Positions 10,760-42,783 of a DNA stretch of 48,396 nucleotides are shown here, in pieces. The notes below the pieces were generated by a model, which was not told where the DNA came from, searched no databases, and was given only the letters and a program-made list of their open reading frames with translations. The stretch's first letter is position 1. Each line of letters opens with the position of its first letter. The stretch covers positions 1 to 48,396 of the forward strand of contig JBHLLF010000022.1 in NCBI GenBank assembly GCA_048885865.1, written 5' to 3'. The stretch comes from Candidatus Hermodarchaeota archaeon. Its GTDB lineage: Archaea > Asgardarchaeota > Thorarchaeia > Thorarchaeales > Thorarchaeaceae. The position numbers and the translations under genes were made by a program.

Positions 10760-10771
10760 GTGCCCATGCAC

Positions 10772-23565: not shown

Positions 23566-24645
23566 ATGCCCAAGGTAGCTGTAGTAAACACCACTGCAAA
23601 GACAATCTTTGACGACATTAGTCGCCTCCTCGATGAGGCCGAATATCAAAAGCATGTCTCAAAGGATGTTGCAACTACCATCAAGCTGAATCTATCCTGG
23701 TCAAAGTTCTATCCCGCATGTTCAACTAACCCCTACGTGTTCGACGGCCTTCTAAGAAAAATGATAGCGGATGGCTATTCACCGCGCAATATTCAAGCGG
23801 TTGAGAACGAAACCGTCGTCACCAATATCTATGCTGGCACTAGGGGGAACAATTGGTATCCTGTAATTAAGAAGCACCGGATTAAGTTCCTCCCACTCAT
23901 TAAGGCCACCTACGTTGATGTGAAGCTCCCTCAAAAGACTCTAGTCCTTGAGGATGTGTTCGGAGAGATCATTGCACCGAAGGAAATCTTTGGAACAAAC
24001 ATAATTCACCTTCCCACTGTGAAGACGCACGGTCACACGCAGATGACGGGGGCTCTCAAGGACTCATTCGGATTGTATTTGACCAAAAAGAGACACCTTG
24101 CACATCTCAAGATCCATGAGGTGCTGGTCGATCTGCTATTGCTTCAGCAAACCATCTCTCACTCTGAGTTTGTACTTACTGATGGTACTGTCATGGGAGA
24201 CGGGGCAGGACCACGAACTATGATTCCAAAGATTGGAAATCTGCTAATCGCTACAAACGACATGGTAGCTGCTGATACGGTACAATCCAGAATCATGGGA
24301 TTGGATCTGAATTGTGTCCATAAGCTTCAGATTGCTGACAGCCTAGGACTGGGTAGTGCAGACCCTGAGAACATTGAAATTGTCGGTGACTACGAGTCGT
24401 GGAAGGATTTGCCGAATTTCCATATGAGTCCAGGCAAATCGCCAGTGATTGCTTGGAACAGAGGATTCCTACGATTTCCGGGCATGGAGCAATTCCTTTT
24501 CCGCTCGCCCCTAATGTGGCTACCTACACAGCTCTCCGGACTGTATCATGATGGAATCTGGCTTCCACTCAAGGGTAAGAAATGGGTGAACTGGTTCCTT
24601 GAGGAAACCGAATGGGGAGATCTTTGGAAATCATATTCAGAATAG
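23566..24645 (+). CDS. DUF362 family protein
   Basis: IKLNLSW..YPACSTNP, LPTVKTHGHT.MTGALK, G.GP, D.VAAD....IMG motifs. Confidence 0.85.
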   Translation: MPKVAVVNTTAKTIFDDISRLLDEAEYQKHVSKDVATTIKLNLSWSKFYPACSTNPYVFDGLLRKMIADGYSPRNIQAVENETVVTNIYAGTRGNNWYPVIKKHRIKFLPLIKATYVDVKLPQKTLVLEDVFGEIIAPKEIFGTNIIHLPTVKTHGHTQMTGALKDSFGLYLTKKRHLAHLKIHEVLVDLLLLQQTISHSEFVLTDGTVMGDGAGPRTMIPKIGNLLIATNDMVAADTVQSRIMGLDLNCVHKLQIADSLGLGSADPENIEIVGDYESWKDLPNFHMSPGKSPVIAWNRGFLRFPGMEQFLFRSPLMWLPTQLSGLYHDGIWLPLKGKKWVNWFLEETEWGDLWKSYSE

Positions 24646-24660
24646 GATGGAGAATCAGAA

Positions 24661-25656
24661 ATGGCAGCTAAGGACTACATCAAATTAATGCGCCCATGGC
24701 AGTGGTACAAGAACTTGCTTGTCTTCATTGCAGTGATATTCGTGGAGATTCCACAGCAATGGCCATGGGAGAAGCTACCAGCAATTTTCGACTGGGCGAA
24801 CTATCCCCTACTTATTCTTGGATTCGTCGCACTTTGCTTTGTATCAAGTGCAGGATACGTCATTAATGACATTTCAGACATGGAAAAGGACTCAGCCCAT
24901 CCTGAGAAAAAGAATCGCCCGCTTCCTTCTGGCGGGGCATCGAAGAAGACAGCCTATATTCTGGCTGCCGTCCTCATGGCTGGAGGGCTCTGGTTGTCAT
25001 ACTATGGTGTCGGAATGCTCGGAGCCTATTATCGAGTGGGAGCTGTGGCAGGGCTCTTCCTACTCATTGTCATCCTGTATATTGTCAATGCTCAACTATA
25101 CAACTACTTCCTTCGCCAATGGGCTGTTGTTGATGTAGTCATCCTCGCAGTGGGATTCATCCTCAGAGCAATTGGAGGCACCTTTCTCATCGGCGTGCCA
25201 TTCACATCCTGGCTGGTAGTGGGCATATTCTTCTTCGCACTGATTCTGGGATTCGGGAAGCGAAAGAACGAGTTACAACTCCTAGGTGAAGATGCTGAGG
25301 CTCACAAAGAGGTGTTTGATCAGTACACAGAGAGCATGCTGGACCAAGGAATTACTATGTCAGCCACCTGGTTTGTGCTCTTCTACGCGCTTTATGTATA
25401 CAATAACTTTCCAAACCCAGTCGCTCAGCCTGTTATGATGACAGTTCCAATAGCTGCAGGACTTATACTGAGATACGTGTACCTCATCCAATCAGGAAGT
25501 CCAGTGGGTCGGAAGCCACATCTAGCTTTCAAAGATCTGGGGATTCTTATCGGAAGCATAATCTTCCTTGGAACATTACTATTTACGATGTTCTTCTGGC
25601 TGCCTGTATTCGAATTCATTCAGGTTATTTTCCCACCCCCTGAAGTAATTCCATAG
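24661..25656 (+). CDS. UbiA-family decaprenyl-phosphate phosphoribosyltransferase-like protein
   Basis: RPWQWYKNLLVF, GYVINDISDMEKDSAHPEKKNRPLPSG, GKRKNEL; multi-TM. Confidence 0.88.
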   Translation: MAAKDYIKLMRPWQWYKNLLVFIAVIFVEIPQQWPWEKLPAIFDWANYPLLILGFVALCFVSSAGYVINDISDMEKDSAHPEKKNRPLPSGGASKKTAYILAAVLMAGGLWLSYYGVGMLGAYYRVGAVAGLFLLIVILYIVNAQLYNYFLRQWAVVDVVILAVGFILRAIGGTFLIGVPFTSWLVVGIFFFALILGFGKRKNELQLLGEDAEAHKEVFDQYTESMLDQGITMSATWFVLFYALYVYNNFPNPVAQPVMMTVPIAAGLILRYVYLIQSGSPVGRKPHLAFKDLGILIGSIIFLGTLLFTMFFWLPVFEFIQVIFPPPEVIP

Positions 25657-26340
25657 GTGTTACAGATGAGCCCGCGCCTCTCAGCCTTTGACCTTCATAC
25701 ACACACCCTATTCTCGAAGGATGGGTTGAATAAGCCGGCAAATCTGTTCAAGCTGATGAGGATGAAAGGGCTAAGGGGCATGGCACTTACTGAGCATTGG
25801 CAGCCGTCCATCTTCAAACCTATAGCCAGAAATGACAGGTTTCTACTCAACGGTTGTGAATACAAATCATCTGACCACGGAGAGCTGATAGGTCTATTCG
25901 TAACCGAACCAATCAAGAATCGCACGTTCGAAGAGATAGCTGATGACATCCATGATCAAAACGCCCTGACGATTCTACCACATCCGAAGGATCCCTTTAG
26001 GAAACACACTGCAACCAGAAGGAAATTGCCTGAGGATCTGATTAGCAAGCATGTAGATCTTATTGAGGGAATAAACTCACGCTGTCTGCTCCCAATACAC
26101 AACACCAAGGCTCAGCGTTTGGCCAAACGACTGAGTAAGCCGATGACAGCTGGAAGTGATGGGCATTTCACGAGAGAGGTCGGGCACGGCAAGACTTGGT
26201 TGCAGGACATAGGAACTGCTGATGATATCTACGAGGAACTAAGGAAGGGAAGAACTCAGATCACTGGTCATGTATCTTTCTTCTACGTTCATATACCTGG
26301 TTTCATCTGGCAACGACTGAGGAGGTGGCCCTATGAGTGA
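25657..26340 (+). CDS. PHP-domain metal-dependent phosphoesterase
   Basis: DLHTHT..SKDG, LTEH, GCE, PHP, AGSDGH; alternative start ATG 25666. Confidence 0.88.
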   Translation: MLQMSPRLSAFDLHTHTLFSKDGLNKPANLFKLMRMKGLRGMALTEHWQPSIFKPIARNDRFLLNGCEYKSSDHGELIGLFVTEPIKNRTFEEIADDIHDQNALTILPHPKDPFRKHTATRRKLPEDLISKHVDLIEGINSRCLLPIHNTKAQRLAKRLSKPMTAGSDGHFTREVGHGKTWLQDIGTADDIYEELRKGRTQITGHVSFFYVHIPGFIWQRLRRWPYE

Positions 26341-27367
26341 TATCGTACCTGATGACAAAGAGTCCGAGGGTTCATTCGTTAGCCTTCGCAAAGTCTTGAT
26401 TTTTGCCTTCGCAGCGGTAGTTGTGTATCTCGCCATTATGTTCGTGTTCCAGTTCGAGCAGGTACTAGCGGCAATCACGGCTATAGATTGGTGGTGGGTT
26501 CTTCCTGTAATGATGGGATTGTCATTTCTGAATTATCTTCTGCGCTATATCAAGTGGCAGTATTATCTACGACGAATCGATGTCAACCTCTCTCACACGG
26601 ATAGTTTCAGCATCTTCCTCGCAGGTTTCACTTTGACAACCTCACCCGGCAAAATTGGCGAAGCAATAAAGGGATATTTCATCCATGACCTAGACGGAAC
26701 TCCAATTGCCAAAACAGTTCCAGTCGTTGTCTCTGAAAGGGTCACTGACCTACTAGCGATGGTATTACTTGCCATGATTGGATTTGTAATCGGGCTTTCA
26801 GGTGTCGATCAGCTGACAACTGTATTATTACTTGGAGGAGTCGTACTTGTAGGAGCTATATTTCTAGGGCAACCAAGGTTCTACAATATCTTCCTTAGAA
26901 AGATGACCTCATTTGGGCCGCTAAAGAGATTCAAGGACAGCGTATCACTTATTGAGGATACGATGGGTAAAACACTATCTCCACAGCCAATGGCCCTCAG
27001 CACAGCCGTCAGTATACCAGGCTGGTTCATGGAGTGTCTCGAACTTTGGCTTCTTCTTTCACTAATGACAGGAGCAGGCATCCCAAGTCTTGCACCAGAA
27101 TCCATTAGTCTGTTAATGATTGCGACTTTCATCCATTCGACTGCTTCAGTTATAGGAGCGCTCTCCTTCCTTCCAGGAGGGCTTGGGACATATGAAGTGT
27201 CAAGTGCGGCATTGATCATTGTCCTCTTGAGCACAACATATGCTGTAGCAGGAGCAGCGACTATCATTATTCGATTTGTTACTCTTTGGTTTAGTGTGAT
27301 TGTGGGATTCATTGCGCTGGGAGTCGTCACAAGACGACGCAAGATGCAGACAAAGAAAGAGGAGTAA
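26333..27367 (+). CDS. Lysylphosphatidylglycerol synthase TM / UPF0104 flippase-like protein
   Basis: LRYIKW, PGKIGE, ERVTD, PGGLGTYE, IRFVTLW. Confidence 0.88.
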   Translation: MSDIVPDDKESEGSFVSLRKVLIFAFAAVVVYLAIMFVFQFEQVLAAITAIDWWWVLPVMMGLSFLNYLLRYIKWQYYLRRIDVNLSHTDSFSIFLAGFTLTTSPGKIGEAIKGYFIHDLDGTPIAKTVPVVVSERVTDLLAMVLLAMIGFVIGLSGVDQLTTVLLLGGVVLVGAIFLGQPRFYNIFLRKMTSFGPLKRFKDSVSLIEDTMGKTLSPQPMALSTAVSIPGWFMECLELWLLLSLMTGAGIPSLAPESISLLMIATFIHSTASVIGALSFLPGGLGTYEVSSAALIIVLLSTTYAVAGAATIIIRFVTLWFSVIVGFIALGVVTRRRKMQTKKEE

Positions 27368-27390
27368 GAAAGGCAGTAGCCTTTCTCACT
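27363..27390. terminator. Hairpin between convergent genes
   Basis: AGAAAGGC-AGTA-GCCTTTCT perfect 8-bp stem, extended by AGT/ACT. Confidence 0.6.
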
Positions 27391-27397: not shown

Positions 27398-30300
27398 CTA
27401 CAACTTGATTCCAAGACTATCAAGGAGTGCTTCTAGGTCAGCCTTGGAGAGGCTCTTTGCCTGTTCAATAATAATATCAATCTCATCGTCAGACATGCCC
27501 TTACGCTTCAATTTCAAGCGAAGCTCTTCAAGCTCCTCGGGCTTCTCCTCCAGGATCTCCTTGGCCTCAGAAGGAACAGGTTCAGCTTCAGCCAGAGCCT
27601 CCGCACGGCGTGCCTCCTCCTGCTCAATTACCTCACGAATGAATCCAGGTCGCTCACTAGCACGCATTCTGGCCAGGTCCTGTCTGAATGCCTCAAGCTC
27701 CATTTCTCCAAGTCCTGTGATTTCAGCCAGACGCTCCAAGAGGTCCTCAATCTCAGGAACAATTGCTTCAATGCTTGGACCCGGGACATCCTCTAGCTCC
27801 TTACTCAGTCCAGATGCCTTCAGTTCCTCATTGATGATCTCAAGGAGCAAATCCTCTCTGGCACGCACCTTTGGAGCGCCTGGAACTTTTCCTTTGGCCA
27901 GTGCAGCTATCATCTTATTCAGCTGTCGAATAATCCATGGGATGGCAAAGTGCTTGACGTATGCAACAATCCCAATTGCCACGAAGATAAAGAGGAAGCC
28001 TCCGCCCAATGCTAGGTTCTGGGCAAGAATCTGCTCATCTGAGAAGTCTGATTTCAGAGTGAAGGTTATTTGCTGGGAGAAGTACAAGTCCTTTGTGAAG
28101 GTGATAGTCACATTGATTGTACCGCCAGTGCGTACTACATATGGGAAGGTGTAAACACCATCAATTACGGGTGGCCTTCTGTCCTCTGGAAATGAGATTT
28201 CCGCGGGATCAAAACTAACCGTTGCAACGGCATCGCTGATACCTACGTCATGATCTAGGTCTCGAAGAAGTATTACTATGGAATCCTGAGCTCCTGGGAA
28301 TGTCAATATTGTTGTGTTTATTCCAAGTGTATCAATCATGGTGAGCACTGGACGAACGGTTAGGTCAAGGAACTGTGACGATATGCTGTAAATCGAGGTG
28401 GAGAATCCAATCTCAATTCGATAGCTTGTCATGATGAGATAGTCTGGCACACTCAACTCATAGCTCCCATTGTCCATCTGGAAGAGCTCCATTATCAGTC
28501 CACTTTCCCAATATGCCAATCCCTGAAGACCTTCAACTGTTTCGTTTGTTAGGTCATTGATCACATTGAATACGACAGAGCCAGTGTGATTGACAGGAAC
28601 GTCGTACGCCGTTGGGCCCTCAATATGTGCGGGAGTGGCAGTTATGAGAACTCTGACTGTGAGTGATGACAAGGAATAGTTCTGGAGACTGAAGCTTGCC
28701 ACTATGTCGTAGAGTCTAGGCGAAGTTGGAGTCAGAGTAATCTCAACAAGATAATATCCAGTACCTAGGTCAGTTACAGCCCCTGTCCCGCCTTCCCAAC
28801 TAACATCCACAAAGGCTCCCACAATTGGCTGGAGATTGTGTGTGTCATTGTAGTAGAAGGTGAATGTCACGACATCGTTATGGTATCCCTCACGCAGCAG
28901 TGTATTTACGGTCACTTCTGTAGGCACAGGTTGTATTGTTACAACTAGAGTCCTCGTGGCTGTTGCCATTCCAGTTTTGGAGCCTATGATTCTAAGGAAT
29001 ATTGTTTGTGCAGGCAAAGCGCTGGTATCAATTATCGCACTGTATGTGCCATTTGCATTCTCAGTAAGACTTCCTCTCAAACTACCAAGAACATATGTGA
29101 CATTAGCGCCAGTAACATATCCACCATAGTATGTATTATTGTACTCAACGAGAATCGAGAGCATTGCCCCTCGAACAACAAACAATGCTGCTGCACCGCT
29201 TGCTAGTGCAATATTCGTTGGAATTGGAACAATGTTGATGTCTACAATTGCATCAAGGAATGCATGATTCAAGGACGCCGCTGTAATAACCGCCTCATAC
29301 GGGCCCAAGGCAAATCCTGTAGCATCAATGTTTGCCAAGTAGAATCCAGGGGTGCCATTAGTTACAAGAGGATAGACAGTATTGTTCCACTCCATAGTAA
29401 TTGATGAGGCAACAACAGGAGAATTTGTGATAGTATCGTTAAGATATATGGTGAATACTTGAGTTGTGTTGACAATCACATCAAACACTGTTTGTTCGCT
29501 AAGAATCTGACCTGGTGCTTTTGATACTACGAGAGTAAGACTGGTCTGACGTGTCTGGTAGTATTGCCGTGATACAGATATTTGCAAATTATAAACGCCA
29601 AAGTTCTCGTTGGATGTGTCAAGCATTAGCGAATATGTACCATTTGCCAGATCGGTGAAGTAATAGATGGTGCTATTCCAAAGCAGAGTCACATTCGCTC
29701 CAGGGATCAGACTATAGTAGTAGCTCTCCCTAACATCAATGCGGATGTCATGAACTTCGCCCCAGAGTGCATAGACAGCTGTCTTATGAAGAACTAGTGC
29801 GAAGGTTGAGGCTCCGGGAGTAACCGATACAACGATGTTTGAATCTTGATAGAGTGATTTCTGGGCTGTGACCGTAAACGAGTAGTCCTGTGCTAGTAGC
29901 CCGGTCATGTTGAGTGTCAGGGTGTAGAGGCCACCGCCTTCCTCAACGAGCTGGTAGCTTGTTCCATATAGAGATGCCCAATCCGTTGTGATAACAGCAC
30001 CAGATAGAGGTACATCATGATCGAAGTCCATGAGGGTCAGTGTGACATTGATTGGAACACCTACTGCTGTCGAACCAGGTGGAGGTGCTTCTGCAACGAG
30101 GGATGTGATGATTGCTCGTATGCTTGCAGGTACGCCAGTAGCGAGCCTCGAGGAGTAGAATGGGACTCCTCCCTTGCTAGCTGAGATATCAAAATAGACA
30201 ATGCCTAAGCCGCCAAAGACAGTTGAATTGATGTAGATTCTATATGAGCCACTACCCAATTCCACGACTTGATATGCTGGAGCTGACCAATTTGTGCTCG

Positions 30301-33300
30301 CCAGTGTTATCACTGCATTCTCTATGCCATGACCAGACAGGAAGTCAATATAATCAAGCTCAATCGTAAAGTTGTCAGTGTAGGGCACTTCTTCTATCAA
30401 TGGAAATAGAATCTGTGTGGACCTTTCAGTTGTCGTGGCTATGGTGTTGGTGCTTCTAAGTGCATAGTATGGAGGAGCACCAGTTACATCGATCTCCAGT
30501 TGAATCGCCTCACCAACAACAAGGGCTGAAGGATTGAGAACGGTCGAATTGAAGCTAATCTCATAGTACGTGCCAAAGTCGTAAAAGGCGTACTCGCCAA
30601 TTGCGATAGGAGTTTCTGCCACTCCATGCGACAAGGTGATGTGCGACTTGGTAATAGGAATAATCATTCCAGTGATATAGTCTTCAAACTTGAACTGGAA
30701 TGTCACATTCTCGAGGAAAGGCGTATCACCCGGAGTCTGAATAATGAGAATCTGGGTTGTTCTCTCAATCACTCTAGAGGTAATATCATTATTCGCAGGA
30801 AGGTAGTACGGCGCTCCAGAATACGATACAGATACACTCAGGATATATGTTCCAAGATTCCCTAGAGCAGTGCTTTCTACTTCTATGAGATATTGCCCTA
30901 ATCCGAGGTATGTCACCCAGTAGTTTGTATTTAGCGCTAGTGTAAAGGTAGAGTTGCTGCAATCAACAATGACTGAGGCTCCACTGACACCTCTCCCTGT
31001 GCTGTCATCAATATAGGTGATTACAAAAGTGACATTCTCCAAATAGGGGACTGGGTCTGGACTCTCATATCCGAACTGCGTAGACCGCTTGAGCACTGAA
31101 AAGCCAAATGTATCAATTGCGCCTGCAAACGTTGGCTGAGTGGGATCAATACTAGCTACTATCGTATAGAGGCCATCTGTTCCGACGCCTGAAGTATTCA
31201 CTGTAACAAGATAGTGTCCGTTTCCTGCATAAACAACTGTATACCATCCAGCTAAAGATGCATTCAATGTAAGAGTTCCAGTCATTCCGACAGAAGATCC
31301 AGCCACCAAGTCAGTATAGGTGAATTCGATAGTTACATTATTGCCCCATTGGCCAGGAGCGAATGAAGAATGCGTCAACTGTGTGGCTCTTTGGATTACA
31401 GTGACAGTGTACGCCAATGTCACAGTAGTTGTGTAGTATGGTGATCCCACCCAGGTGACATTCAGGACAAGAACGTGACTCCCAATTCCGGCCAATGTTG
31501 AAGTATCAACTCGAAGAAGGAAAGACACATCTCCCGAATCATATGAATAGGAATAGCCCACAGTGCCATTGAGCAGAGATATCGACATTTGAGGAGAGTC
31601 ACCGATACGGGCAGTGGTTAGGAAATCAATGTAGCTGAACTCCAGGTCAGCAAGCTCACCATAGGGTGTGGAGGGCACTGGTATATAGTCGATGTAGGTG
31701 GGTCTCTGAAGCACGACTAAGGTAACAGTCATGGTCTGGTTTTCATAGAGAGGTGATACTCCCTTCGGCCACATGAACCCGATGCGGAATATGAATGAGC
31801 CAGTAGCGTCCAGTTGGGTGCTGTCCAACCTGAATTCATATATCCCTGTTCCAAGACCTGTTTCCGCCACAACAAAGTCACTCTGAGTAACGGGATGTCC
31901 TGCTGTTAGTGAATCAATTGTCAACAGGACATTGAGAGTGTTATTCGATATGTTCGTTGTATTCGTCACGTCATAGTAAACAACAGTGAAGCTGAATTCA
32001 TTCAGGAAATAGACCGCAGTAGGAGCTTGGTCCAAAAATATGTCTGTCGCAGTCCCGGTGAGACGCACGCGAGTGTTAAAGGATTGACCTGTGTATTTGG
32101 TTCCGGTCCATGAAACTGATATTGTCAGATTCTTCCATCCCACGCTACCCCATTGAGTGCTGGGAATGCTGATGTTGTAATGTCCATCACCCAATGAAGA
32201 GGCTACTAATGCAAACTGGACATTTCCAATCTCCGGCGATGTGATAGTAATCTGCACGTTTCCAGTGATGTTCGTGATACCAACCTGCAAGTCAGTGTCC
32301 TGGAAGAATACCAAGACCATAACCTGTTCATTGAATTGAGTCTGCTGGATTGGTTCGTCCAGAGTGAATAGTGTGCTGTGAGACCTGATGATTACAGATA
32401 TGATGAATGTCTGATTTCTCATCAGGTATCCGGAAAGGCTGACTGAAACTGGATAGTTGCCTGGAGCATCGCTATCCAAGGTATAGATTGTGATGTTGTA
32501 GAGACCAGGTGAAACTTCATCCACCTTATAGGTCCCAGCCCAAGTTGTGGTAATTGAATCATTCAGCCCCGTCAAAGGAACATCGTGATCCACATTCATC
32601 CACTCCACCGTGAAAGAGCTGGCTTCGCCAACAGGAATCTCAAGCACATTCTGGACATATGTGGCTCTAGTATTCAGCTCTCTTACGGTCACATAAATGA
32701 GATATCGCTGTGGAAGCACGAAATTGGCTTTCCCAGTGACTTCCACGACATATTCGCCCATGTCCACGAATGTTGTATTCAGCCAGACGAGGTAACTCCC
32801 GGGGGAGCCTGCGACGGGATTGACAGTGTAATAGCTTGTCCAATTGCAGTCTACACTTCCATAGTCAATTGGATTCCCTGTCGAATCCTCGAATCTAACT
32901 TGGAAGCTAGAGTTGTAATTCTTGGGCACTGAGATACCGGGTGATTCAGGGTCTTCAAGAACGAAGGTTGCATCATAGTTCAGGTTGATTGTCAGATAAT
33001 TGACTATGGAGTCAAAGTGCGGATGAGTCCATGCGATTTCTATGACCCAAATGCCATTCGATGGCAGGTCACCAGAATCAAGCGTTATAATGTACTCACC
33101 GTTTCCAGCATCTCCAAAAGTCTGTGGACCAGTTGTCCAGTTGCATGACATCTGCCCTCCTGGCACAGTCACTCCAAGTATATCGCTGTCATTGACACGT
33201 ATTCTAACGAGGAACAAATCGGGATAAGTCACATTCGTTATCCATGTAATCTGTGCATCAACAGGGTTAAGGAGCTCTGAGTTTGAAGCATGAACAACAT

Positions 33301-35062
33301 TGAATGCACGTCGGAAGAAGCCAGTCGCATTCCATGCTGTTGCGCCTATTGAGTTATCACAGAAGGCCTCAAGGATATAGCTTCCAGCGGTGGCGTTCAG
33401 CCCGAAGGTCAACATAGGAGTTTCGGCATATCCAGTAGTGTTCACTGTCGCCAGAGTCGTATACCAAATTGCCCCTGATGGAGAATAGACCGTGAGATTC
33501 ACGTCGACTCCAACAAAGCTTGGATCCAACTGGGCACCTAGCTTTGCAGAATCTCCAGCACGTAGGTCAAGGAATCTCGAGTTCGAGTGTGTGGATGGGT
33601 CGAACATTAAGACATCAGATATCATATTGGGTCCGGTGCTCTTGATCAACCAGTAGCCCCATCTATCTGGGTAGTTGAATGCAGAGATATTCGCAAACCA
33701 AGTCGGACCATGACCTTCATTCCAGTCTGTAATATTCTCTGATGTCAAAAGAGGCGACCCCACATAGTAGACGTCGCGTCCCTCTGGAAGTGTCATGTTG
33801 AAGAAGTACCTGTTATCATATCCTGTTGGAATATCAGCGTTGAACCAAGTGAGATAATCCACATCTGTGGCATTCTCAACTTCAAATACTTCTCCAAACG
33901 CAGAGGGATCTTGTGTATAGACAGTAGTTGTGGCTCCGCGAGCGTAGAGGTTGGTTTCAACATTGAAATCGACCTCAATTTTCCTGTCAGGACTAGGAGT
34001 TGCAGGGTTTGGAGTCCAGGTGAGGTTAATCATTATTGGGCCAGAGGTCCAAGTCGGAACAGGATTCTGCGTCAGATTGCCCAGCCCTGGAACAGTGCCG
34101 AGTCCAACTGCATAATCGTTCACATCCAGCCCGTTCACCTGCAAGTTTACATCCGATGGATCAGTCAAAGTTTCAAGGTACAATTCGAAGTTGTCTACTC
34201 TTGCCTCTGGGTCAAGATCGGGAATGTAATTGACGCCTTGTTGGCTGTAGAGACCCACTTCAATGTCCACTCCATCAGATAAATCAAAATCAGACAGGTC
34301 AGTGAGCTCGATGAGACCGCTGTCATACCATGTTTGTGCTTGGTCAACATCAGCAAAGGACTTCTGCCAGACTCTCTGTTGATAGTCATTGGTTTCAATG
34401 GATACATATACAGCCACGAATCCATCTGCGCCCCAAGCAGAATCTATCCAATAATCTAGACGGAAACCAGCCCACACAACGTCCCCACGATTGACAACCA
34501 TGTTCTGACGGATGTATCCTCTCTCGCCAGTACTTGGGTCTCCTGGAATCGTATATTCAATGCAGTCGTCCCCAGCACCATGACCGTTGGTTAACCAAGT
34601 TGGAAGAGGGGCGCCACCAGCTGAGCCACGAGTCCATGAAGTGTCACCATTCTCCATATCGGGGTCCTGTGTCCATGTACGGTTCTCAGTCAAGTCATAT
34701 ACGCTGACGAACAGCTCATGGCCTTCCCAATCATCACTCATAGGAACGTAAACGGAGGTATCAGTTGTGCCGGAACCCGGAGAATAGGTCATCTGGTTGG
34801 AGAGATGAGTGTCCGTACGATTGCCATATGCGACGGCAGGAATACCCGATGACAGCCCTTGCCATGTTACCATTCCTTGCTCAGACAGCACCATTGTTCT
34901 TTCATCAATGCCCAGTGGCCTCTGCATAGAATCGTCAAAGGAATTTGTACTTTGCAAGTTATCATCAAACATGTTGAGGTCGAAAGCTATTGGGCCTGAT
35001 GCTCCAAAGGCAAGTATGAATGCCAATGCTAGAACCAGGGTCAATCTTGTGGACGATTTCAT
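27398..35062 (-). CDS. Giant type I membrane protein (2554 aa) with Ig-like repeats and conserved helical cytoplasmic tail (paralog A)
   Basis: Signal peptide; N-terminal jelly-roll-like domain; many ~100-120-aa beta repeats with G.G.Y...l.T..L..G.Y motifs; TM LALGGGFLFIFVAIGIVAYV; ~185-aa tail; ATGA overlap with paralog B. Confidence 0.92.
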   Translation of the reverse strand: MKSSTRLTLVLALAFILAFGASGPIAFDLNMFDDNLQSTNSFDDSMQRPLGIDERTMVLSEQGMVTWQGLSSGIPAVAYGNRTDTHLSNQMTYSPGSGTTDTSVYVPMSDDWEGHELFVSVYDLTENRTWTQDPDMENGDTSWTRGSAGGAPLPTWLTNGHGAGDDCIEYTIPGDPSTGERGYIRQNMVVNRGDVVWAGFRLDYWIDSAWGADGFVAVYVSIETNDYQQRVWQKSFADVDQAQTWYDSGLIELTDLSDFDLSDGVDIEVGLYSQQGVNYIPDLDPEARVDNFELYLETLTDPSDVNLQVNGLDVNDYAVGLGTVPGLGNLTQNPVPTWTSGPIMINLTWTPNPATPSPDRKIEVDFNVETNLYARGATTTVYTQDPSAFGEVFEVENATDVDYLTWFNADIPTGYDNRYFFNMTLPEGRDVYYVGSPLLTSENITDWNEGHGPTWFANISAFNYPDRWGYWLIKSTGPNMISDVLMFDPSTHSNSRFLDLRAGDSAKLGAQLDPSFVGVDVNLTVYSPSGAIWYTTLATVNTTGYAETPMLTFGLNATAGSYILEAFCDNSIGATAWNATGFFRRAFNVVHASNSELLNPVDAQITWITNVTYPDLFLVRIRVNDSDILGVTVPGGQMSCNWTTGPQTFGDAGNGEYIITLDSGDLPSNGIWVIEIAWTHPHFDSIVNYLTINLNYDATFVLEDPESPGISVPKNYNSSFQVRFEDSTGNPIDYGSVDCNWTSYYTVNPVAGSPGSYLVWLNTTFVDMGEYVVEVTGKANFVLPQRYLIYVTVRELNTRATYVQNVLEIPVGEASSFTVEWMNVDHDVPLTGLNDSITTTWAGTYKVDEVSPGLYNITIYTLDSDAPGNYPVSVSLSGYLMRNQTFIISVIIRSHSTLFTLDEPIQQTQFNEQVMVLVFFQDTDLQVGITNITGNVQITITSPEIGNVQFALVASSLGDGHYNISIPSTQWGSVGWKNLTISVSWTGTKYTGQSFNTRVRLTGTATDIFLDQAPTAVYFLNEFSFTVVYYDVTNTTNISNNTLNVLLTIDSLTAGHPVTQSDFVVAETGLGTGIYEFRLDSTQLDATGSFIFRIGFMWPKGVSPLYENQTMTVTLVVLQRPTYIDYIPVPSTPYGELADLEFSYIDFLTTARIGDSPQMSISLLNGTVGYSYSYDSGDVSFLLRVDTSTLAGIGSHVLVLNVTWVGSPYYTTTVTLAYTVTVIQRATQLTHSSFAPGQWGNNVTIEFTYTDLVAGSSVGMTGTLTLNASLAGWYTVVYAGNGHYLVTVNTSGVGTDGLYTIVASIDPTQPTFAGAIDTFGFSVLKRSTQFGYESPDPVPYLENVTFVITYIDDSTGRGVSGASVIVDCSNSTFTLALNTNYWVTYLGLGQYLIEVESTALGNLGTYILSVSVSYSGAPYYLPANNDITSRVIERTTQILIIQTPGDTPFLENVTFQFKFEDYITGMIIPITKSHITLSHGVAETPIAIGEYAFYDFGTYYEISFNSTVLNPSALVVGEAIQLEIDVTGAPPYYALRSTNTIATTTERSTQILFPLIEEVPYTDNFTIELDYIDFLSGHGIENAVITLASTNWSAPAYQVVELGSGSYRIYINSTVFGGLGIVYFDISASKGGVPFYSSRLATGVPASIRAIITSLVAEAPPPGSTAVGVPINVTLTLMDFDHDVPLSGAVITTDWASLYGTSYQLVEEGGGLYTLTLNMTGLLAQDYSFTVTAQKSLYQDSNIVVSVTPGASTFALVLHKTAVYALWGEVHDIRIDVRESYYYSLIPGANVTLLWNSTIYYFTDLANGTYSLMLDTSNENFGVYNLQISVSRQYYQTRQTSLTLVVSKAPGQILSEQTVFDVIVNTTQVFTIYLNDTITNSPVVASSITMEWNNTVYPLVTNGTPGFYLANIDATGFALGPYEAVITAASLNHAFLDAIVDINIVPIPTNIALASGAAALFVVRGAMLSILVEYNNTYYGGYVTGANVTYVLGSLRGSLTENANGTYSAIIDTSALPAQTIFLRIIGSKTGMATATRTLVVTIQPVPTEVTVNTLLREGYHNDVVTFTFYYNDTHNLQPIVGAFVDVSWEGGTGAVTDLGTGYYLVEITLTPTSPRLYDIVASFSLQNYSLSSLTVRVLITATPAHIEGPTAYDVPVNHTGSVVFNVINDLTNETVEGLQGLAYWESGLIMELFQMDNGSYELSVPDYLIMTSYRIEIGFSTSIYSISSQFLDLTVRPVLTMIDTLGINTTILTFPGAQDSIVILLRDLDHDVGISDAVATVSFDPAEISFPEDRRPPVIDGVYTFPYVVRTGGTINVTITFTKDLYFSQQITFTLKSDFSDEQILAQNLALGGGFLFIFVAIGIVAYVKHFAIPWIIRQLNKMIAALAKGKVPGAPKVRAREDLLLEIINEELKASGLSKELEDVPGPSIEAIVPEIEDLLERLAEITGLGEMELEAFRQDLARMRASERPGFIREVIEQEEARRAEALAEAEPVPSEAKEILEEKPEELEELRLKLKRKGMSDDEIDIIIEQAKSLSKADLEALLDSLGIKL

Positions 35063-38000
35063 TCCTTCAGACCTCCTATTTGATCAAGTAGTGCATCTAT
35101 TTCCGCCTTAGTCAGCGACCTCGCCTGCTCTACCATGAGGTCTGCCTCAGATGGTTCGATTCCCATCTTGATGAGCTCCTGCTTCAAATGCTCAAGCTCA
35201 TCCTCCGTGAGCATGCGTTCAGCCTCTGAAACCGCCTCAGGTGCCTCGGCTGACACCTCAACCTCCGCTAGTTCCCGAGCTCTCCTTGATCTCTCCTGTC
35301 GAATGACCTCTCCAATGAATCCTGCGCGCTCACTGGGTCGCATCTTTTCGAGGTCACTCCTCAGAACGGCGATGTCGTCATGGGTGAGGCCAACGACGAC
35401 CTGCAGTTCTTCTAGTAGCTGTTCAACATCAAGGGCCTCAACCTCAACTGTGGACACCGCAACATCCTGCATCGTCTTCCTGATGCCAACTGGCTCCAAT
35501 TCGTCATTCATCACGCGAAGGAGGTATGTTCTTCTATCACTGACTTTCGCAGCGGGCGGGATTTGTCCTTTGCCAAGCATTGAAACCATACGTCTAATGA
35601 TTCTGAGAAGCTTCGGAACAGACCAGACTCTCACATATGCAGCCGCCAGACCTGCAACCAAAATCAACAAGAAGCCTGCATAGCTGAAGGTCTGAAACAT
35701 AGCCTGGGTTTCAGGAGAGAACACTGAGTAGATATCCAAAGTTAAGACACCCCTCCGGTAGTCCTCTTTGTCAAGTGTGATGACTAACTCATAGTAACGA
35801 ACAGCACTTGGAATGAAAGCAAATACATACGTACCATTTGGATGAACCATGGCAAGACTGGCTTCATTTTCTAGGGGAGTAGTTGTATTGATTGCGTCGA
35901 TGATTGGAACACCATGGTCGACATCCATGTAGGTGATGCGGACATAGAATGGTTCTCCGACATAGGTGCTTGGAAGCAGAGGTTCAAATATCATTGAGGT
36001 CGCAATCTCGCGAATCGTGAGATCAAAATTCAGCTGCTGTGTTGAGTAGTTAGCTTTGCTGAATAGAATCCTAAGTGCATAGGGTTCGCTTCTCACTTCC
36101 AGCCTGCTAAAGCCAGCCTCTGTGGGACCGAATCTATATGATCCATTACCCAATGCAAAGAGTGGAGCAGAACCAAACTCCCAGAATGCTGTAACAGATG
36201 CATCCACAAGAAGCTCATTGTTTAGAGTATCATTAAACTGGAACATCTGAGTGAAGTCGTCACCAACTGGAACAGTGGCTGAATCAGACCCAATAACCTC
36301 AGTGGAGATTGGCATTGCTACAAACTTAACAACGCTATAGGCATAGTCATAGAGATTCTTCTGGAAGATCACTGAGATATCATGCGCGATGAGACCAGCT
36401 GTAACCCAGGTAGTATTGATGGTTAAAGAGTAGACTCCACCACCGACCTCCACAAGTGTGCCACCCCTGCCTTCCAGCACATATGTCGCCAGTGCACCTG
36501 CTATTCCAATATTGTTGAAGGTGTCATTGAAGCTCAATAGGAACGTTAAGTTGGTCCCGTAGTATCCATTCTGTAGCACATCGCTTATTGGAAGGACTGC
36601 AGTTGGCACTTTGAGAATTGTTATGGTGAATTGGGTAGAGGCAGGAGTAAAGCCATCCTTTAGGCTTGATACAGTAAGAATCCAGTCGCCTATTTGTAGG
36701 GGTGCACCTGTTGGTACTTGAGCGGTGTAGTAGCCATTGCCCAACTCAGTTAGGTCACCTACAATCACATCTATTCCATATGTCAAAGCGGCACCAAGAA
36801 CTGGTCCAGTCAGATCAACATTCTCCAAGTAGACTGTAACATTCACGAAATCTCCAGAAACTGCTGACAACACAGTTACGCCTTGATACGCAGATAGAGC
36901 AGTGGTAATCTCAGTTATCTCAATAGTTATGGGTGTACTTACACTCTTGTAGATTGAGGAGCTTGCTTGGATGAGTATCTGATGGTTACCTACAGCTGCG
37001 TTTGCTACAATCATTTGACCGATGTACTTCTGCTGCGCAGGCACCCAAGTGAGAACACCAGTACCTCCAATCCAGCTATATTTGACCAATCCAATCTCTA
37101 TAGCCGTGCTGTTTGAAAATATTAAGTAATCAGCTTCAATTGTCACTGTTTCTCCGTTAACTGCAACTTGGGGGTCTAGTGAAGCCAGAATCTTAGCTGG
37201 GACTTTATCAATGCGAATCTGAAAGTCTCTTTGTCTGGTTTCATAATTCAAAAGAGTCGATTCGACCCTGATTGTATATTCGCCACTAACAAGACCCATA
37301 GTTGAAACAGTAGCATTGTAAATACCACCGCCGATTTCTGCCATAGTGTATGTTCGCCCATAGAGGGTGAGATTTACAGTGGCTGCTAGGACTGGGGCAC
37401 CATTTCGGGCATCAGTGACATTAGCACTGAACTCAAGAACATCACCCCAAACAGGATCCGTCGGTGAGAATACTAGATCGATCTCAACAGGGATAGCTGC
37501 CAAGAGGATGTCCGCCGTGACTGACCTGCTAAGATGGAGGAACTTTGAAGCGTTAATGCTGAAAGTGTAGATTTGCGCATTGAGTCCTGATGTGTCAATC
37601 TCCATCCTGTAGATGCCGTTTCCAAGCGGAGTGATTGTGTGGGTCGTTCCCCAGAGAGCTGTCCAATCGCTGACAACAGTGGCTCCATCAATGCCTTGAC
37701 CTTCGTTGATATCGGTGAAGGTGATATTTCCAACTACTAGGTCCCCAAGATAATATGTGACTCCTTGAGGTAGGACAAAATTCAGGCTTGTTGAAACCGG
37801 ATTGACTAGCACACTAAACTCCAATCCAATGACGTCCTTGTAGTATGGGGACCCAGACCATGTGATATCGGCACTAAAGAAGTAGCGACCTATCCCGGCT
37901 TCGAGATCGTTTGTATCGACGATTATTTTGTATCGCCCATCGCCCATGTCAACAATCCAACTTGAGAAGACAGAATCATTGACGCACGTGAAAGTCACCA

Positions 38001-41000
38001 TTGCACCAGGGATGGGATCACCAGAGAGGTAGTCACTGAACTCGATGGTGGCACTCAAGTTGAAGTAATAGAAGGCACCAGGAGTTGAAAGCACCCGACC
38101 CTGGGTGAATCGAGCATTTATGTTGACCGCGGTGGATGTTGTTGCGTTGGCATAATATGGAGTGAAGTCGCCCCAGAAGAACTTGACAAAGATCGGATGA
38201 CCTGAAACTAGAACAGATGTCAGAACAGTCGAGTTGATTGATATTATGTAGACACCATTTGCACCACTTATGCTGAATTCTGAATCAAGAATCAGCGTGC
38301 CTCCTCCATGTGTGAGAATGAGTACACTCTTGTTGAGCGATATCGGAGAGCCATCGAGAGAATCGGCTATTGTCAATTCGAAACTCACATTCTCAAGGAA
38401 GGGTGTATTGAGCGGTGACTTTGAAACACTCAGGCTGACAGGTCTTCTTGAAACCTCAATGTCCACCAACCGGACGCGTTCCAAGTAGAAGGGACTGCCA
38501 GTCCAGTTCGCTGTGATTTCTATTGTGTATCGCCCGAAATTACCAAGAGCAACAGTTGATATGCGGACTCTGTAGTAGCCAGAGCCAAGCTCATCGACCC
38601 AGTAGTTGCTGTCCAGCACAAGAGGCTGGGAAGATGTTGCACAAAATGCGTAGACCTGAGCTCCCTCAATCCCTGCATCAGTGCTGTCATCGATGTATTG
38701 GACTGTTATGTTGGCTTGAGTCAGGAATGGTGCAAGATCTGGAAGCTCACTTGTCATCTGGGTACGTCTAGCTTGAATGGTCAAGTAGAAGAAGTCAACA
38801 GCATCTGCACAGAACCTGACTCCTCCATAGGCAATTGAAACATTTACAATGAAAGTTCCGGTAGACGGGAATCCGTCAGTCCTTAACTCAAGTGTATAGG
38901 TTCCATCTCCGTTGTCGGCGTAATCATAGAATCCAGCCATTCCCATAACTGTGAGTGTGCCGCCGTCCATTCCCAGCGATGTGAGATCATCCTGATCAGT
39001 ATATGTAAATACCAAGGTCAGATTGTTGCCAAATTGAACCGGCGAGTAAACGCCATGCGTTAGCGACGTGTACCGTTCACGCACATTGATGAAGATGTTG
39101 ACCGTACGATTCTGATAGAATGGACTACCCGACCATACAAGATTCACTTGAAATGAATGGGTTCCTGTTGACAAGAAGAGCGAAGTATCAACCTGTATGA
39201 AGAATATGCCAGTGGTATCCCCATCATAGTAGATTGTGAAGGCATAGCCGGGTGTCGTGATTTGAAGACTTGGACTATCTAGAATATTGCTGTCCGATAG
39301 TACATCTTTGAAGGTAAGAGTAAGATTGACCTTCTCATCATAAGGAGTGACCGGCAATGGATTCCAGTTAACAACTGTCTGTCTGTATGTGGAAAAGACA
39401 CTGAGGAGTAGAGTTCTGTTCTCATAAAGCGGAAGGGCTCCTTTTGTCCAGTTCACATGTATTCGCAGCTGACATTCGATAAGTCCAGACAAATAGGATG
39501 AGTTGAACTCAATCCGGTATTCACCAGGACTACCAACGAAATCGATTTCTGTTATTACCATGAGGCTCTGTGTTAATGTTTGGCCAGGTGTGATTACTTC
39601 GATGTAGATGAGAACGTTATTGGCGAATGGACCAGTGCCATTCACAATTCCGTTGGTGGCACCGACATCCCAGTAGATTATTGTGAATGTGATATTTTCG
39701 CCATAAGGCGTGGATGTTGGACTGGTCCCTAGAAACAGGTCCGTCGGGGCTCCAGAGATTCTTACTGAGAAGGTCAAGACTTTGTTATCATACTTTGCGC
39801 GTTGGCCGGTCCAATTTGCATATACCGATAGCTGTTTCCAGCCAATATCACCCCATTGGCTCGCAGGCACAGCAATAATGTATTGTCCAGCGATTGAACC
39901 ATTGTAGACCGTATAGGTCAGGGGCTCGACGACTGGAGAGGTCACATAGATTAACACATCTGATCCAATTATGCCTGAGAGTGTTGATGCATCATAATAC
40001 GTCACATTGATGAGAATCATCCCGGTATAAGGTGTAGGCTCTACGGGGTTATCAAGAGATAAGAGGGTAAGATGGCTAGTGACAATGACTGTAATTGAGA
40101 AAGTATGATTCTGATAGCCAAACCTACTCACATCAAAAACAACATCGTAGCTTTGTAGAAAGTCAGTTTCAGTGGAGAAGAATACGACTTCATATATCCC
40201 TGGAGATGTCATTGTTACAGTGTAATTCTGATCTCCGAGAACATGACTTTCTGACCAATTGCATACTATTGAGCTCTCAGCCCCAGTAATAGGCTGATCA
40301 TGATCCGTGTCCCATACTGTCAATGAAACTGACTCTTGGAATCCGATTGGCAGGTATACAACACTCCGAGAGGTCGACACAGATGTGAACAACTGTCTGA
40401 CTTCAATGAATAGCGTGATGCTTGCTGTGACGTAGAAGTCCTTCTGCGCGGTGACGACCACTGCATATGTTCCTAGATTCGTATTCGGAGTTGTTATCGT
40501 CAATGTGTAGTTCCCGGGTTCGCCAGGTGCTGGGACAACTGTGTATGATGAATCAGTCCAATTGCATAGTATGGTGGCTCCATCGATACCTGCATCACGA
40601 GAGTCAGCAAAGATGAGCTCAAAGGATGCATCCCAACTTCGAGGAACTGTCAGCCCAGGCGCATCAGGAGAACTTAGACTTGTTTCTTCTATGACATTGA
40701 TGACAAATGTTTCTAGGATTGAGTCATAGTAGGCATTACTCCATGTTAAAATGATCACATATCTACCGGGGGTTCCTAAATCCGCCGTGTTCAGAACAAC
40801 GCTATATTCACCTGTCCCCATATCATTCAGTGGATTGACTCCACTAGTCCAATTGTAGGTGGCTGTACCGCCAGGAAGAAGGTCACCATTATCAGAATCA
40901 TTGACTCTCACCTGAAGCAGCATATCCTGACCGTATGTGAGGTTCCTCATCCAAGTGATTTTAGACTCCCGAGGATATGTTACATACATGTCTGTGGCAT

Positions 41001-42783
41001 GTTGAATCGCAAACACTCTACCATAGAGACCCACATCGTGAATCGAGCCGCCCGAGATAGAGTCGTTAGCAAATGCTTCAACGGTCCATTGTCCAACCTC
41101 AGCTGTCAACGCATCAAGGTTCACGTCTGTAGTCTCAGCAATTCCACCGACAACTGTGGCCTCAAGGCGGTCCCATAGTGCACCAGAGGTATCATAGATT
41201 GAGAAGCTTACTACTGCACCATTGAAGGCAGAGCTGAGTTGGGCTCTGAAGCGGACATTGTCGTTCGCACGATAGGTATAGGTTGAATCCCAAGCAGAGC
41301 CAGTCCACATCTGCAGGTCTTGAATCATATTGTCGGAGTGCCCTTGGAAACGCCAGAAACCATTTTGGTATGTGTCAGTAATGCCTTCGTACACAGACAC
41401 ATTCACACTGGTCGAGTCTTGAGACCAATAGGCAAAATCAGAATCAGGATATCGAGGCTCAGACACCATGTCAATCGTACGAGTAGTTTCCTTTGTGAGG
41501 TTAAGGAAGTAGAGGTTTGAATATCCATTGGGTACAGCGACGAAATAGTAGCTGTTCCATTGGACCTGAGAGCTATTTGATACTGAGAAATACTCTCCAT
41601 AGCTTTGGACTTCAGCCTGGTATAATGAGGATCTATTCAATTTCCTTGCGTATACGGTCATATCAACTGAGAATGTCACACGAATAACATCAATTGGGTC
41701 TGGATTGACTGGTGTGGGCGTCCAGGAGAAAGTCGAGTTGACTGAGCTTCCAGTCCACGGAATCTGAGGAACTTCAGTGGCGGTTCCAACACCCCATAGC
41801 CAGCCGCCGATGCCGTCGCTAGTGTTTGCCACATCAAGTCCATTCATCTTTAGATTCACCTGAGATGGCAGTACACGCGATTTCACAAACACCTTCACAT
41901 TGTCCATACGGACCTCAGGATTCAGCTGGGGTTGGCAGCCAAACGATCGGGTTGTCCTCACTCCTATCTGTAGTGTGAAATCTGAGGAAGTGATCAGGGA
42001 CGCATTTCCCTCCACGAGTCCAGTGGAATACCAAGTTGTCTGGGCTAGAACATCATTGAATTGAATGTCCCAGAGATGGTTTGCCACGATATCAGCTGAA
42101 CCAACTTGTACATAAAGCTCCCAAAAGCCCACAGGTGCGCCACCCCATGCGTCATCTACCCAATAGTCAAGCGATACACCAACCCATGTAACCTCACCGC
42201 TACTTGTAGATATGCTCTGCTCGGCATAGCTTCGATCGCCAAGGTCATGACGATACCAACCTCCATCCAGATCCCCTGTCTGGGTGAAGCTAATTACTCC
42301 TCCTGATATTACAGGGATGAATAGGTTGGTATGCGGGCCTATTTCATCAGTCCCAAGTGTCCAGTCAGAGGTTGTGGAAAAGTCAGGATTTGTAATCCAA
42401 GTTCGATTCTCTTGGAGGTCACTGATAGAGGTAGAAATTGCTGTCCCTTCCCAGAGAGGACCTAATGGAACTGAAGTTGTATCAGATGTAGTCGTATTGG
42501 AGGTTTCATAGGTGAGTTCAATATCGGTGAAACTATCAGTTCGCACACCGTATTCCGAAACATTCAGAGGAGAGCCAACACCGTCTCGAGCAAGTGGTAC
42601 ATCGGAAAGGCTGTATGAATGGAGAACTTCGTCCGATTGAACCTCAATAGTCTGTCCTCCTCCAATATCCACAAGACGAGAGCTTTCAGTATCTTGTCCT
42701 ATGATGTTATGACCACCAAAGGTCGACAGAAGAAGAATCGGCAGTAGCAAGATTGTAAGTGAAAGAGTCCGACGACTGTGCAT
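35059..42783 (-). CDS. Giant type I membrane protein (~2574 aa) with Ig-like repeats and conserved cytoplasmic tail (paralog B)
   Basis: Collinear with paralog A; ATG 42783 has GGAGG upstream (track start 42819); TM FSYAGFLLILVAGLAAAYV. Confidence 0.92.
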   Translation of the reverse strand: MHSRRTLSLTILLLPILLLSTFGGHNIIGQDTESSRLVDIGGGQTIEVQSDEVLHSYSLSDVPLARDGVGSPLNVSEYGVRTDSFTDIELTYETSNTTTSDTTSVPLGPLWEGTAISTSISDLQENRTWITNPDFSTTSDWTLGTDEIGPHTNLFIPVISGGVISFTQTGDLDGGWYRHDLGDRSYAEQSISTSSGEVTWVGVSLDYWVDDAWGGAPVGFWELYVQVGSADIVANHLWDIQFNDVLAQTTWYSTGLVEGNASLITSSDFTLQIGVRTTRSFGCQPQLNPEVRMDNVKVFVKSRVLPSQVNLKMNGLDVANTSDGIGGWLWGVGTATEVPQIPWTGSSVNSTFSWTPTPVNPDPIDVIRVTFSVDMTVYARKLNRSSLYQAEVQSYGEYFSVSNSSQVQWNSYYFVAVPNGYSNLYFLNLTKETTRTIDMVSEPRYPDSDFAYWSQDSTSVNVSVYEGITDTYQNGFWRFQGHSDNMIQDLQMWTGSAWDSTYTYRANDNVRFRAQLSSAFNGAVVSFSIYDTSGALWDRLEATVVGGIAETTDVNLDALTAEVGQWTVEAFANDSISGGSIHDVGLYGRVFAIQHATDMYVTYPRESKITWMRNLTYGQDMLLQVRVNDSDNGDLLPGGTATYNWTSGVNPLNDMGTGEYSVVLNTADLGTPGRYVIILTWSNAYYDSILETFVINVIEETSLSSPDAPGLTVPRSWDASFELIFADSRDAGIDGATILCNWTDSSYTVVPAPGEPGNYTLTITTPNTNLGTYAVVVTAQKDFYVTASITLFIEVRQLFTSVSTSRSVVYLPIGFQESVSLTVWDTDHDQPITGAESSIVCNWSESHVLGDQNYTVTMTSPGIYEVVFFSTETDFLQSYDVVFDVSRFGYQNHTFSITVIVTSHLTLLSLDNPVEPTPYTGMILINVTYYDASTLSGIIGSDVLIYVTSPVVEPLTYTVYNGSIAGQYIIAVPASQWGDIGWKQLSVYANWTGQRAKYDNKVLTFSVRISGAPTDLFLGTSPTSTPYGENITFTIIYWDVGATNGIVNGTGPFANNVLIYIEVITPGQTLTQSLMVITEIDFVGSPGEYRIEFNSSYLSGLIECQLRIHVNWTKGALPLYENRTLLLSVFSTYRQTVVNWNPLPVTPYDEKVNLTLTFKDVLSDSNILDSPSLQITTPGYAFTIYYDGDTTGIFFIQVDTSLFLSTGTHSFQVNLVWSGSPFYQNRTVNIFINVRERYTSLTHGVYSPVQFGNNLTLVFTYTDQDDLTSLGMDGGTLTVMGMAGFYDYADNGDGTYTLELRTDGFPSTGTFIVNVSIAYGGVRFCADAVDFFYLTIQARRTQMTSELPDLAPFLTQANITVQYIDDSTDAGIEGAQVYAFCATSSQPLVLDSNYWVDELGSGYYRVRISTVALGNFGRYTIEITANWTGSPFYLERVRLVDIEVSRRPVSLSVSKSPLNTPFLENVSFELTIADSLDGSPISLNKSVLILTHGGGTLILDSEFSISGANGVYIISINSTVLTSVLVSGHPIFVKFFWGDFTPYYANATTSTAVNINARFTQGRVLSTPGAFYYFNLSATIEFSDYLSGDPIPGAMVTFTCVNDSVFSSWIVDMGDGRYKIIVDTNDLEAGIGRYFFSADITWSGSPYYKDVIGLEFSVLVNPVSTSLNFVLPQGVTYYLGDLVVGNITFTDINEGQGIDGATVVSDWTALWGTTHTITPLGNGIYRMEIDTSGLNAQIYTFSINASKFLHLSRSVTADILLAAIPVEIDLVFSPTDPVWGDVLEFSANVTDARNGAPVLAATVNLTLYGRTYTMAEIGGGIYNATVSTMGLVSGEYTIRVESTLLNYETRQRDFQIRIDKVPAKILASLDPQVAVNGETVTIEADYLIFSNSTAIEIGLVKYSWIGGTGVLTWVPAQQKYIGQMIVANAAVGNHQILIQASSSIYKSVSTPITIEITEITTALSAYQGVTVLSAVSGDFVNVTVYLENVDLTGPVLGAALTYGIDVIVGDLTELGNGYYTAQVPTGAPLQIGDWILTVSSLKDGFTPASTQFTITILKVPTAVLPISDVLQNGYYGTNLTFLLSFNDTFNNIGIAGALATYVLEGRGGTLVEVGGGVYSLTINTTWVTAGLIAHDISVIFQKNLYDYAYSVVKFVAMPISTEVIGSDSATVPVGDDFTQMFQFNDTLNNELLVDASVTAFWEFGSAPLFALGNGSYRFGPTEAGFSRLEVRSEPYALRILFSKANYSTQQLNFDLTIREIATSMIFEPLLPSTYVGEPFYVRITYMDVDHGVPIIDAINTTTPLENEASLAMVHPNGTYVFAFIPSAVRYYELVITLDKEDYRRGVLTLDIYSVFSPETQAMFQTFSYAGFLLILVAGLAAAYVRVWSVPKLLRIIRRMVSMLGKGQIPPAAKVSDRRTYLLRVMNDELEPVGIRKTMQDVAVSTVEVEALDVEQLLEELQVVVGLTHDDIAVLRSDLEKMRPSERAGFIGEVIRQERSRRARELAEVEVSAEAPEAVSEAERMLTEDELEHLKQELIKMGIEPSEADLMVEQARSLTKAEIDALLDQIGGLKE

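Follow-up and report, generated by a model that had tools for sequence, protein, structure and literature searches.

Among eukaryotic type I adhesion receptors, the integrin beta tail binds talin and the tail of classical cadherins binds catenins. NPRL2/NPRL3 (GATOR1), C9orf72/SMCR8 and FLCN are longin GAP subunits of eukaryotes. Cultured Asgard archaea encode many longin proteins and small GTPases without, to our knowledge, known cellular jobs. 'NPRL2-like' proteins were described in Thor and Loki lineages (bioRxiv 10.1101/2020.10.19.343400), adhesin-like giants in Nerearchaeum marumarumayae (bioRxiv 10.1101/2025.07.22.663070) and unordered surface densities on Ca. Lokiarchaeum ossiferum (PMC9834061); unordered surface proteins and adhesion-dependent crawling with protrusions were described for cultured Asgard archaea (PMC9834061; bioRxiv 10.1101/2025.11.30.690169).

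The window, the whole stretch of 48,396 nucleotides analysed here, carries two giant surface genes, B and A, which lie head-to-tail on the minus strand with an ATGA overlap joining the stop of B to the start of A. Their features were as follows.

27398-35062, minus strand: gene A, a 2554-aa secreted single-pass surface protein with a signal peptide, a large sequon-rich ectodomain, one transmembrane (TM) helix and a 185-aa tail
35059-42819, minus strand: gene B, a 2586-aa collinear paralogue, about 31% identical to A
27956-28012, minus strand: TM helix of gene A, residues 2351-2369, hydropathy 2.35
35632-35688, minus strand: TM helix of gene B, position approximate
27401-27955, minus strand: tail of gene A, 185 aa
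35062-35631, minus strand: tail of gene B, 190 aa counted from the residue equivalent to the start of the A tail
27367-27386, no strand: 8-bp inverted repeat read from the sequence, directly past the stop of gene A and before the convergent gene; a possible terminator

Both proteins have an N-terminal hydrophobic signal and a single C-terminal TM helix. N-glycosylation sequons numbered 59 and 54 in the two ectodomains and were absent from the tails, and 6-8 lysines and arginines occurred in the first 30 residues past the TM helix. A and B thus combine what defines a type I single-pass protein (signal peptide, one C-terminal TM helix, sequons outside only and basic post-TM residues), and the confinement of the sequons to the ectodomain together with the basic post-TM residues fits a cytoplasmic tail. 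No Pfam or NCBIfam family scored above its cut-off for gene A, and none of Loki-CTERM, PGF-CTERM and the other NCBIfam sorting signals did so on the TM helix plus tail of A, B and four non-Thor relatives. Four tightly packed plus-strand genes (23566-27367) converge on gene A and were judged by eye to be DUF362-like, UbiA-like, PHP-like and flippase-like.

A and B resemble the Nerearchaeum giants and the Lokiarchaeum surface proteins in being very large, membrane-spanning proteins with signal peptides and FN3/Ig-like domains, a comparison by description only; the accessible parts of those descriptions deal with ectodomains, whereas a conserved cytoplasmic tail or a partner does not figure in them. 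With integrins and cadherins the giants would share a signal peptide, a long repeat ectodomain, one TM helix, a conserved tail and a membrane-proximal docking site for an adaptor, the last of these predicted here. They differ from both in giving no sequence or fold match, in their tail modules and in the type of adaptor, and no link to actin was shown. By analogy, the giants would work like eukaryotic adhesion or cargo receptors with adaptor-docking tails while being members of no such family.

The preliminary description had claimed a conserved cytoplasmic domain of about 185 aa on both giants, and this was borne out: the segments it quoted are present, and the two tails were identical at 76 of 183 positions (42%, BLASTP E 3e-43), compared with 23-37% in ectodomain windows. 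It had placed the second copy at 35059-35620; the tail is indeed there, but extends slightly further than given. In 58 of 58 full-length gene A orthologues the tail was more conserved than the ectodomain (mean 61% vs 50%). Homologues that carry names were from Thorarchaeota or Promethearchaeota.

The structure of the tail was predicted with AF2 from an alignment of 103 tails (mean pLDDT 86, pTM 0.41; folded units about 86-90), that is, the model consists of confidently folded units without a fixed mutual arrangement. The two small helical bundles described earlier were recovered (helices within residues 69-124 and 139-180), together with a third module that had been missed, a juxtamembrane helix-loop-helix (helices 7-20 and 33-48). 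We refer to the modules as J, H1 and H2.

27788-27955, minus strand: module J of gene A, tail residues 1-56, juxtamembrane helix-loop-helix, predicted adaptor-docking site
27584-27766, minus strand: unit H1 of gene A, tail residues 64-124, three-helix bundle
27407-27547, minus strand: unit H2 of gene A, terminal three-helix bundle homologous to H1
35464-35631, minus strand: module J of gene B, residues directly past the TM helix
35260-35442, minus strand: unit H1 of gene B, E 4.9e-20
35074-35211, minus strand: unit H2 of gene B, E 9.7e-17

In module J, P6, R10 and R33 were invariant and G22 and P25 conserved, while most positions invariant within Thorarchaeota (L76, F105, Q112 and E113) fell in H1. 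Among gene A orthologues H1 and H2 were conserved above J (73% vs 47%). A profile built from non-Thor units only gave at least 10 bits in 59/103 H1 and 48/103 H2 units versus 0/618 shuffles, and profile-profile probabilities for H1/H2 were 97.7% and 95.8%; these profile comparisons show H1 to be homologous to H2. Contig C8 encodes two paralogues in which H2 stands four times in tandem.

The first helix of J is basic and amphipathic and the remaining tail is acidic, as might be expected if the tail were a mundane anchoring or stabilising element of S-layer-like proteins. Such a role is most improbable in view of the invariant polar residues R33, Q112 and E113, the confidently folded units, the higher conservation of the tail than of the ectodomain in every orthologue compared, and the existence of a co-distributed partner (see below).

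No library (Pfam, NCBIfam, PDB) names J, H1 or H2, in agreement with the earlier suggestion of a possibly unnamed domain family, and a fold search of the tail returned generic helical bundles only. The likeness to RecX, Pex14-N or UBA units that had been proposed for the last bundle was not supported. The H units are like the RecX repeat, the Pex14 N-terminal domain and UBA in being small three-helix bundles of 45-50 residues, but sequence scores were sub-threshold only. The RecX three-helix domain (PF21982, RecX_HTH1) reached 16.4-16.8 bits over 21 residues, about 10 bits below its Pfam cut-off of 26, and matched 28/103 tail members at E<0.05 (best E 0.0014). Pex14-N (PF04695) matched two of 103 tails, at E 0.026 or worse, and two of 61 H units, the better of these at E 0.001. 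The fold search with the H unit, which was of limited power, likewise returned generic helical bundles, and RecX, Pex14-N and UBA were not among them.

The survey of tail carriers proposed in the preliminary description placed the tail well beyond this pair. Nine tail-bearing genes were found in this genome; the eight with an assembled ectodomain encode proteins of 2,550-6,540 aa, and several stand as tandem pairs. A search of 1.84 billion representatives gave 101 matches; wherever the N-terminal side was included, the tail was C-terminal and preceded by a TM helix, save in two chimeric-looking records. In these (P0162 and P0165) part of the tail stands behind unrelated sequence, and they are probably chimeric assemblies or frame errors. 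The full tail was present in 74/76 genomes of the Thor family and a diverged form in 19/19 of another Asgard family (family names here were taken from the NCBI labels of marker proteins).

Iterated profile searches showed that the tail modules travel separately. A profile of the TM helix plus J matched 216/301 Asgard genomes, including 75/76 Thor, 68/68 of the large Loki-type family, 7/7 of a second Loki family, 4/4 Odinarchaeum, 5/5 Jordarchaeales, 1/1 Baldrarchaeia and 1/1 Helarchaeota, plus others, and all named matches of the global search with this profile were Asgard. Few or no matches came from the Heimdallarchaeum aukensis family (1/28), from Borrarchaeum (0/5) or from three further families (0/11, 1/21 and 4/11, three of the last four being weak). 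These near-empty families indicate that the profile does not fire on just any TM helix with basic residues behind it. J makes up the entire tail (46-60 aa) in several lineages, and such J-only tails stand behind LamG, carboxypeptidase-regulatory-like and invasin-like ectodomains, with 3-12 J genes per Loki-type genome. H units had a narrower distribution (148/301 Asgard genomes) and were found also without J.

Two further groups of surface proteins were seen with other tails. In a usually single-copy Loki receptor (L031, L078-L085, L087, L095), an Ig-like ectodomain and a TM helix are followed by a longin-like domain, a part resembling a winged helix, a single H unit and a helical C-terminal end, without J. 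Large surface proteins of this genome with ectodomains related to those of A and B (G000:C6:21897-26627, C7:105748-111519, C93:915-5681 and C91:221-4672) carry a different, winged-helix-like tail; judged from sequence, the stalk family of A and B uses alternative cytoplasmic cassettes.

Neighbour clustering revealed one dominant family downstream of J genes, a soluble protein of about 370 aa, whose gene has the orientation of the J gene and begins no more than about 50 bp away from it at 14 loci in 13 genomes. This adjacency spans Odin, two Loki-type families and others, and the coordinates of profile matches reveal more adjacent pairs; the Thorarchaeota giant genes do not adjoin a gene for this protein, hereafter the adaptor. 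Several J genes in Loki-type genomes each have their own adjoining adaptor paralogue. The adaptor profile matched 217/301 Asgard genomes. Both J and adaptor were found in 212 genomes and neither in 80, with J alone in 4 (three of them weak, E about 5e-4) and the adaptor alone in 5; presence of the two agreed in 28/30 families. As related genomes are not independent, this co-occurrence amounts to a few concordant events, not 292 observations, and it may reflect few loss events, or both profiles missing fast-evolving lineages. The sole strong J matches in three otherwise negative families (L104, L113 and L115, in G280, G205 and G295) are J-adaptor pairs, each on one contig and with Loki-like sequences, possibly through bin contamination or transfer of the pair. 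In one Loki-type genome, adaptor matches lie within open frames of about 2,660 aa (G210:C9:430373-431437 and 438724-439788), which suggests direct fusion to a large protein.

It is unlikely that the tail mainly pairs or clusters surface proteins, A with B or all paralogues through their H units, and has no partner outside this family. In favour of this, A and B are equal in length and coupled in translation, and H units, as is usual for homotypic modules, are repeated up to four times in a row and recur in the tails of unrelated receptors. Clustering would, however, leave the J-only tails and the adjacency and co-distribution of the adaptor unexplained; for the H units alone it is compatible with docking of an adaptor on J.

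This genome has three adaptor paralogues, the closest of which is encoded on contig C20 (locus L144:209-1345, 379 aa). The adaptor was 85-93% identical across Thorarchaeota genera. It matched no Pfam family above cut-off; its members gave weak winged-helix matches in the C-terminal region, databases label them hypothetical or ArsR-like, and their Atlas neighbours were Asgard clusters. The N-terminus contains a W-x4-G motif (W in 48/49 members, G in 49/49) with the spacing of C9orf72 W33 and G38 (PMC12290439). The residue after the invariant glycine was Leu in 24/49 and Ala in 13/49, the proline of the GP motif that precedes the second strand in NPRL2/C9orf72-type proteins being rare. Adaptor profile searches gave no NPR2, uDENN or longin family match; the likeness of the motif suggests that the adaptor N-terminus is a longin domain. 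The paralogue on contig C90 has the full WDxxxGP motif and a GTPase gene overlapping it, and two genes upstream of it lies a membrane protein (G000:C90:5827-7998, L145) that has a weak J-like segment (E 0.18) and whose tail of 450 aa is acidic.

An Arf/Roc-like GTPase gene, N-terminally extended and scoring best as Arf, follows all three adaptor paralogues, and a GTPase gene follows the adaptor also in most of the relatives checked (Thor and four other families). The adaptor would resemble NPRL2/C9orf72-type proteins in its N-terminal W-x4-G spacing, its winged-helix C-terminal region and its gene adjoining that of a small GTPase; it differs in that Pfam NPR2 gave no match, the GP proline is rare and the arginine finger was not located. 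About 5.5 kb from the adaptor-GTPase pair on contig C52 a 180-aa protein with almost no ectodomain consists of a TM helix and a J-like segment (G000:C52:1953-2492, L146:153-692, plus strand; E 3e-7); it might act as a decoy for the adaptor or anchor it to the membrane.

A complex of J of gene A (56 aa) with the C20 adaptor (379 aa) was modelled with an ipSAE of 0.84, compared with 0.00 for the best of 3 controls. The model runs shared at least 97% of contacts, with a partner pLDDT of at least 82. The ipSAE mark, which 58/80 solved complexes but also 2/110 mismatched pairs attained, is roughly valid here, own alignments having been used, and the complex was modelled with one of the three adaptor paralogues, close cousins being able to pass as well. 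In the model J R33 (95% conserved) meets adaptor D215, P342 and Y344 (97, 100 and 92%), and the first helix of J meets L370 and L373 (100 and 97%); conservation of the adaptor interface was modestly above background (0.62 vs 0.53, p 0.03). Neither chain resembles a solved structure by sequence beyond a generic wHTH, which makes recall of a memorised complex less likely. The predicted interface lies in the C-terminal half of the adaptor and spares residues 1-159, so that the longin-like part would stay free for a GTPase. J probably docks the adaptor, the score being the confidence of a model and no measurement of binding.

A cytoplasmic partner, for example of the cytoskeleton or of signalling, had been anticipated in the preliminary description; a partner is now predicted for J, while the lead to actin through WH2 failed its sequence tests. 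WH2-like motifs are known in Asgard gelsolins (PMC9433394). J and WH2 (Pfam PF02205) both have an amphipathic helix with I-x-x-G at its end, then a basic stretch and, further on, an Arg, and the two best PDB sequence matches of the TM plus J profile were WH2 segments with helix-Gly and Arg in register (Spire 3mn7, E 0.24; WIP 2a41, E 0.67), although both values are insignificant. An LKK motif occurs in one Loki J, which Pfam WH2 matches weakly, and the genome encodes an actin. The best WH2 overlap on J was nevertheless 11.5 bits against a Pfam cut-off of 23.1, WH2 was not listed for 62 members, and in 22 unselected Loki-type genomes all 4 weak WH2 matches lay outside the 132 J modules. The LKKT motif was not conserved, position G+3 after the J helix, that of the LKKT Leu, being Pro in 23/62, Val in 12, Ile in 8 and Glu in 7. 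The same face of the J helix is buried in the predicted adaptor interface. By these tests J is no WH2 member, and direct binding of Asgard actin by J as a WH2-like motif, tying surface proteins to the cytoskeleton, is very improbable; J rather folds as a unit of two helices, with a different protein as its predicted partner.

Taken with the gene order, these data make it reasonably likely that the tail serves as a modular scaffold for docking, carried by a paralogous family of Asgard surface proteins that are large, single-pass and probably glycosylated, with J docking on an adaptor encoded next to an Arf-like GTPase. By sequence J, directly past the TM helix, is the oldest part of the tail. 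Its first helix and conserved Arg are predicted to clamp the C-terminal half of the adaptor, leaving the N-terminal longin-like domain free, and gene order suggests that this domain engages the N-terminally extended Arf/Roc-like GTPase. The surface proteins may in this way be positioned by, or signal to, a small-GTPase switch, with either direction of information flow. H1 and H2 would be a second, repeatable interaction module that Thorarchaeota and a number of other lineages have added, either to cluster the proteins or to engage another partner.

Eukaryotic AP and COPI adaptors read cargo tails, and the AP sigma and mu subunits are longin proteins recruited by Arf. J could similarly be a sorting or localisation signal through which the adaptor and Arf-like GTPase place or recycle surface proteins, in protrusions or budding vesicles, with no signalling. 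This inside-out variant of the docking model would suit a shared address tag, as J alone forms the whole tail on many ectodomain types, several times per Loki-type genome, and it agrees with the best score of the adjoining GTPase as Arf. We consider it rather unlikely: the predicted J site is on the C-terminal half of the adaptor and not on the longin-like domain, and Loki-type J genes with their own adjoining adaptor paralogues suit dedicated pairs better than one general sorter.

More tentatively, the docking scaffold may extend in most Asgard archaea to a pathway from a giant-adhesin docking tag through a longin/winged-helix regulator to an Arf-like GTPase, coupling adhesion to protrusion or membrane dynamics. 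If true, prokaryotes would have, in this surface receptor-adaptor-GTPase pathway of Asgard parts, a counterpart to the adhesion signalling and cargo-adaptor sorting of eukaryotes; in the Heimdall-type families searched it would apparently have been lost or have changed beyond recognition. The near-absence of J from those families bears on whether eukaryotic adhesion signalling was inherited from such a system or replaced it. The literature searched, comprising few subscription journals and some sources in part, gave no mention of the tail, of the tail-adaptor pair or of a surface link to longins or GTPases, and no published report of longin GAP subunits bound to the tail of a membrane protein; within that literature the tail and adaptor are not described. 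They offer a testable link between the Asgard surface and eukaryote-like switch proteins, and a small soluble pair for which contacts are predicted, consisting of a peptide of 56 residues and a protein of 379 aa, the two kinds being encoded side by side in Loki-type genomes.

Some neighbours of the giants were also recorded. Within the window, the minus-strand gene at 4217-10771 encodes another secreted membrane protein, of 2184 aa, which contains bacterial TSP3 repeats (E 1e-13) and internal hydrophobic segments and whose short basic tail has neither J nor H. Many Thor genomes have a RadA-like gene in convergent orientation immediately behind one of the giant paralogues (L008, L009, L011, L012, L013, L017; G000:C2:9446-10276), which is probably plain synteny. 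On contig C8 a 433-aa protein with a Rab-like C-terminal GTPase-type domain (G000:C8:57588-58952, plus strand) is encoded between tandem giant pairs of 3986+6541 aa and 5473+3986 aa.
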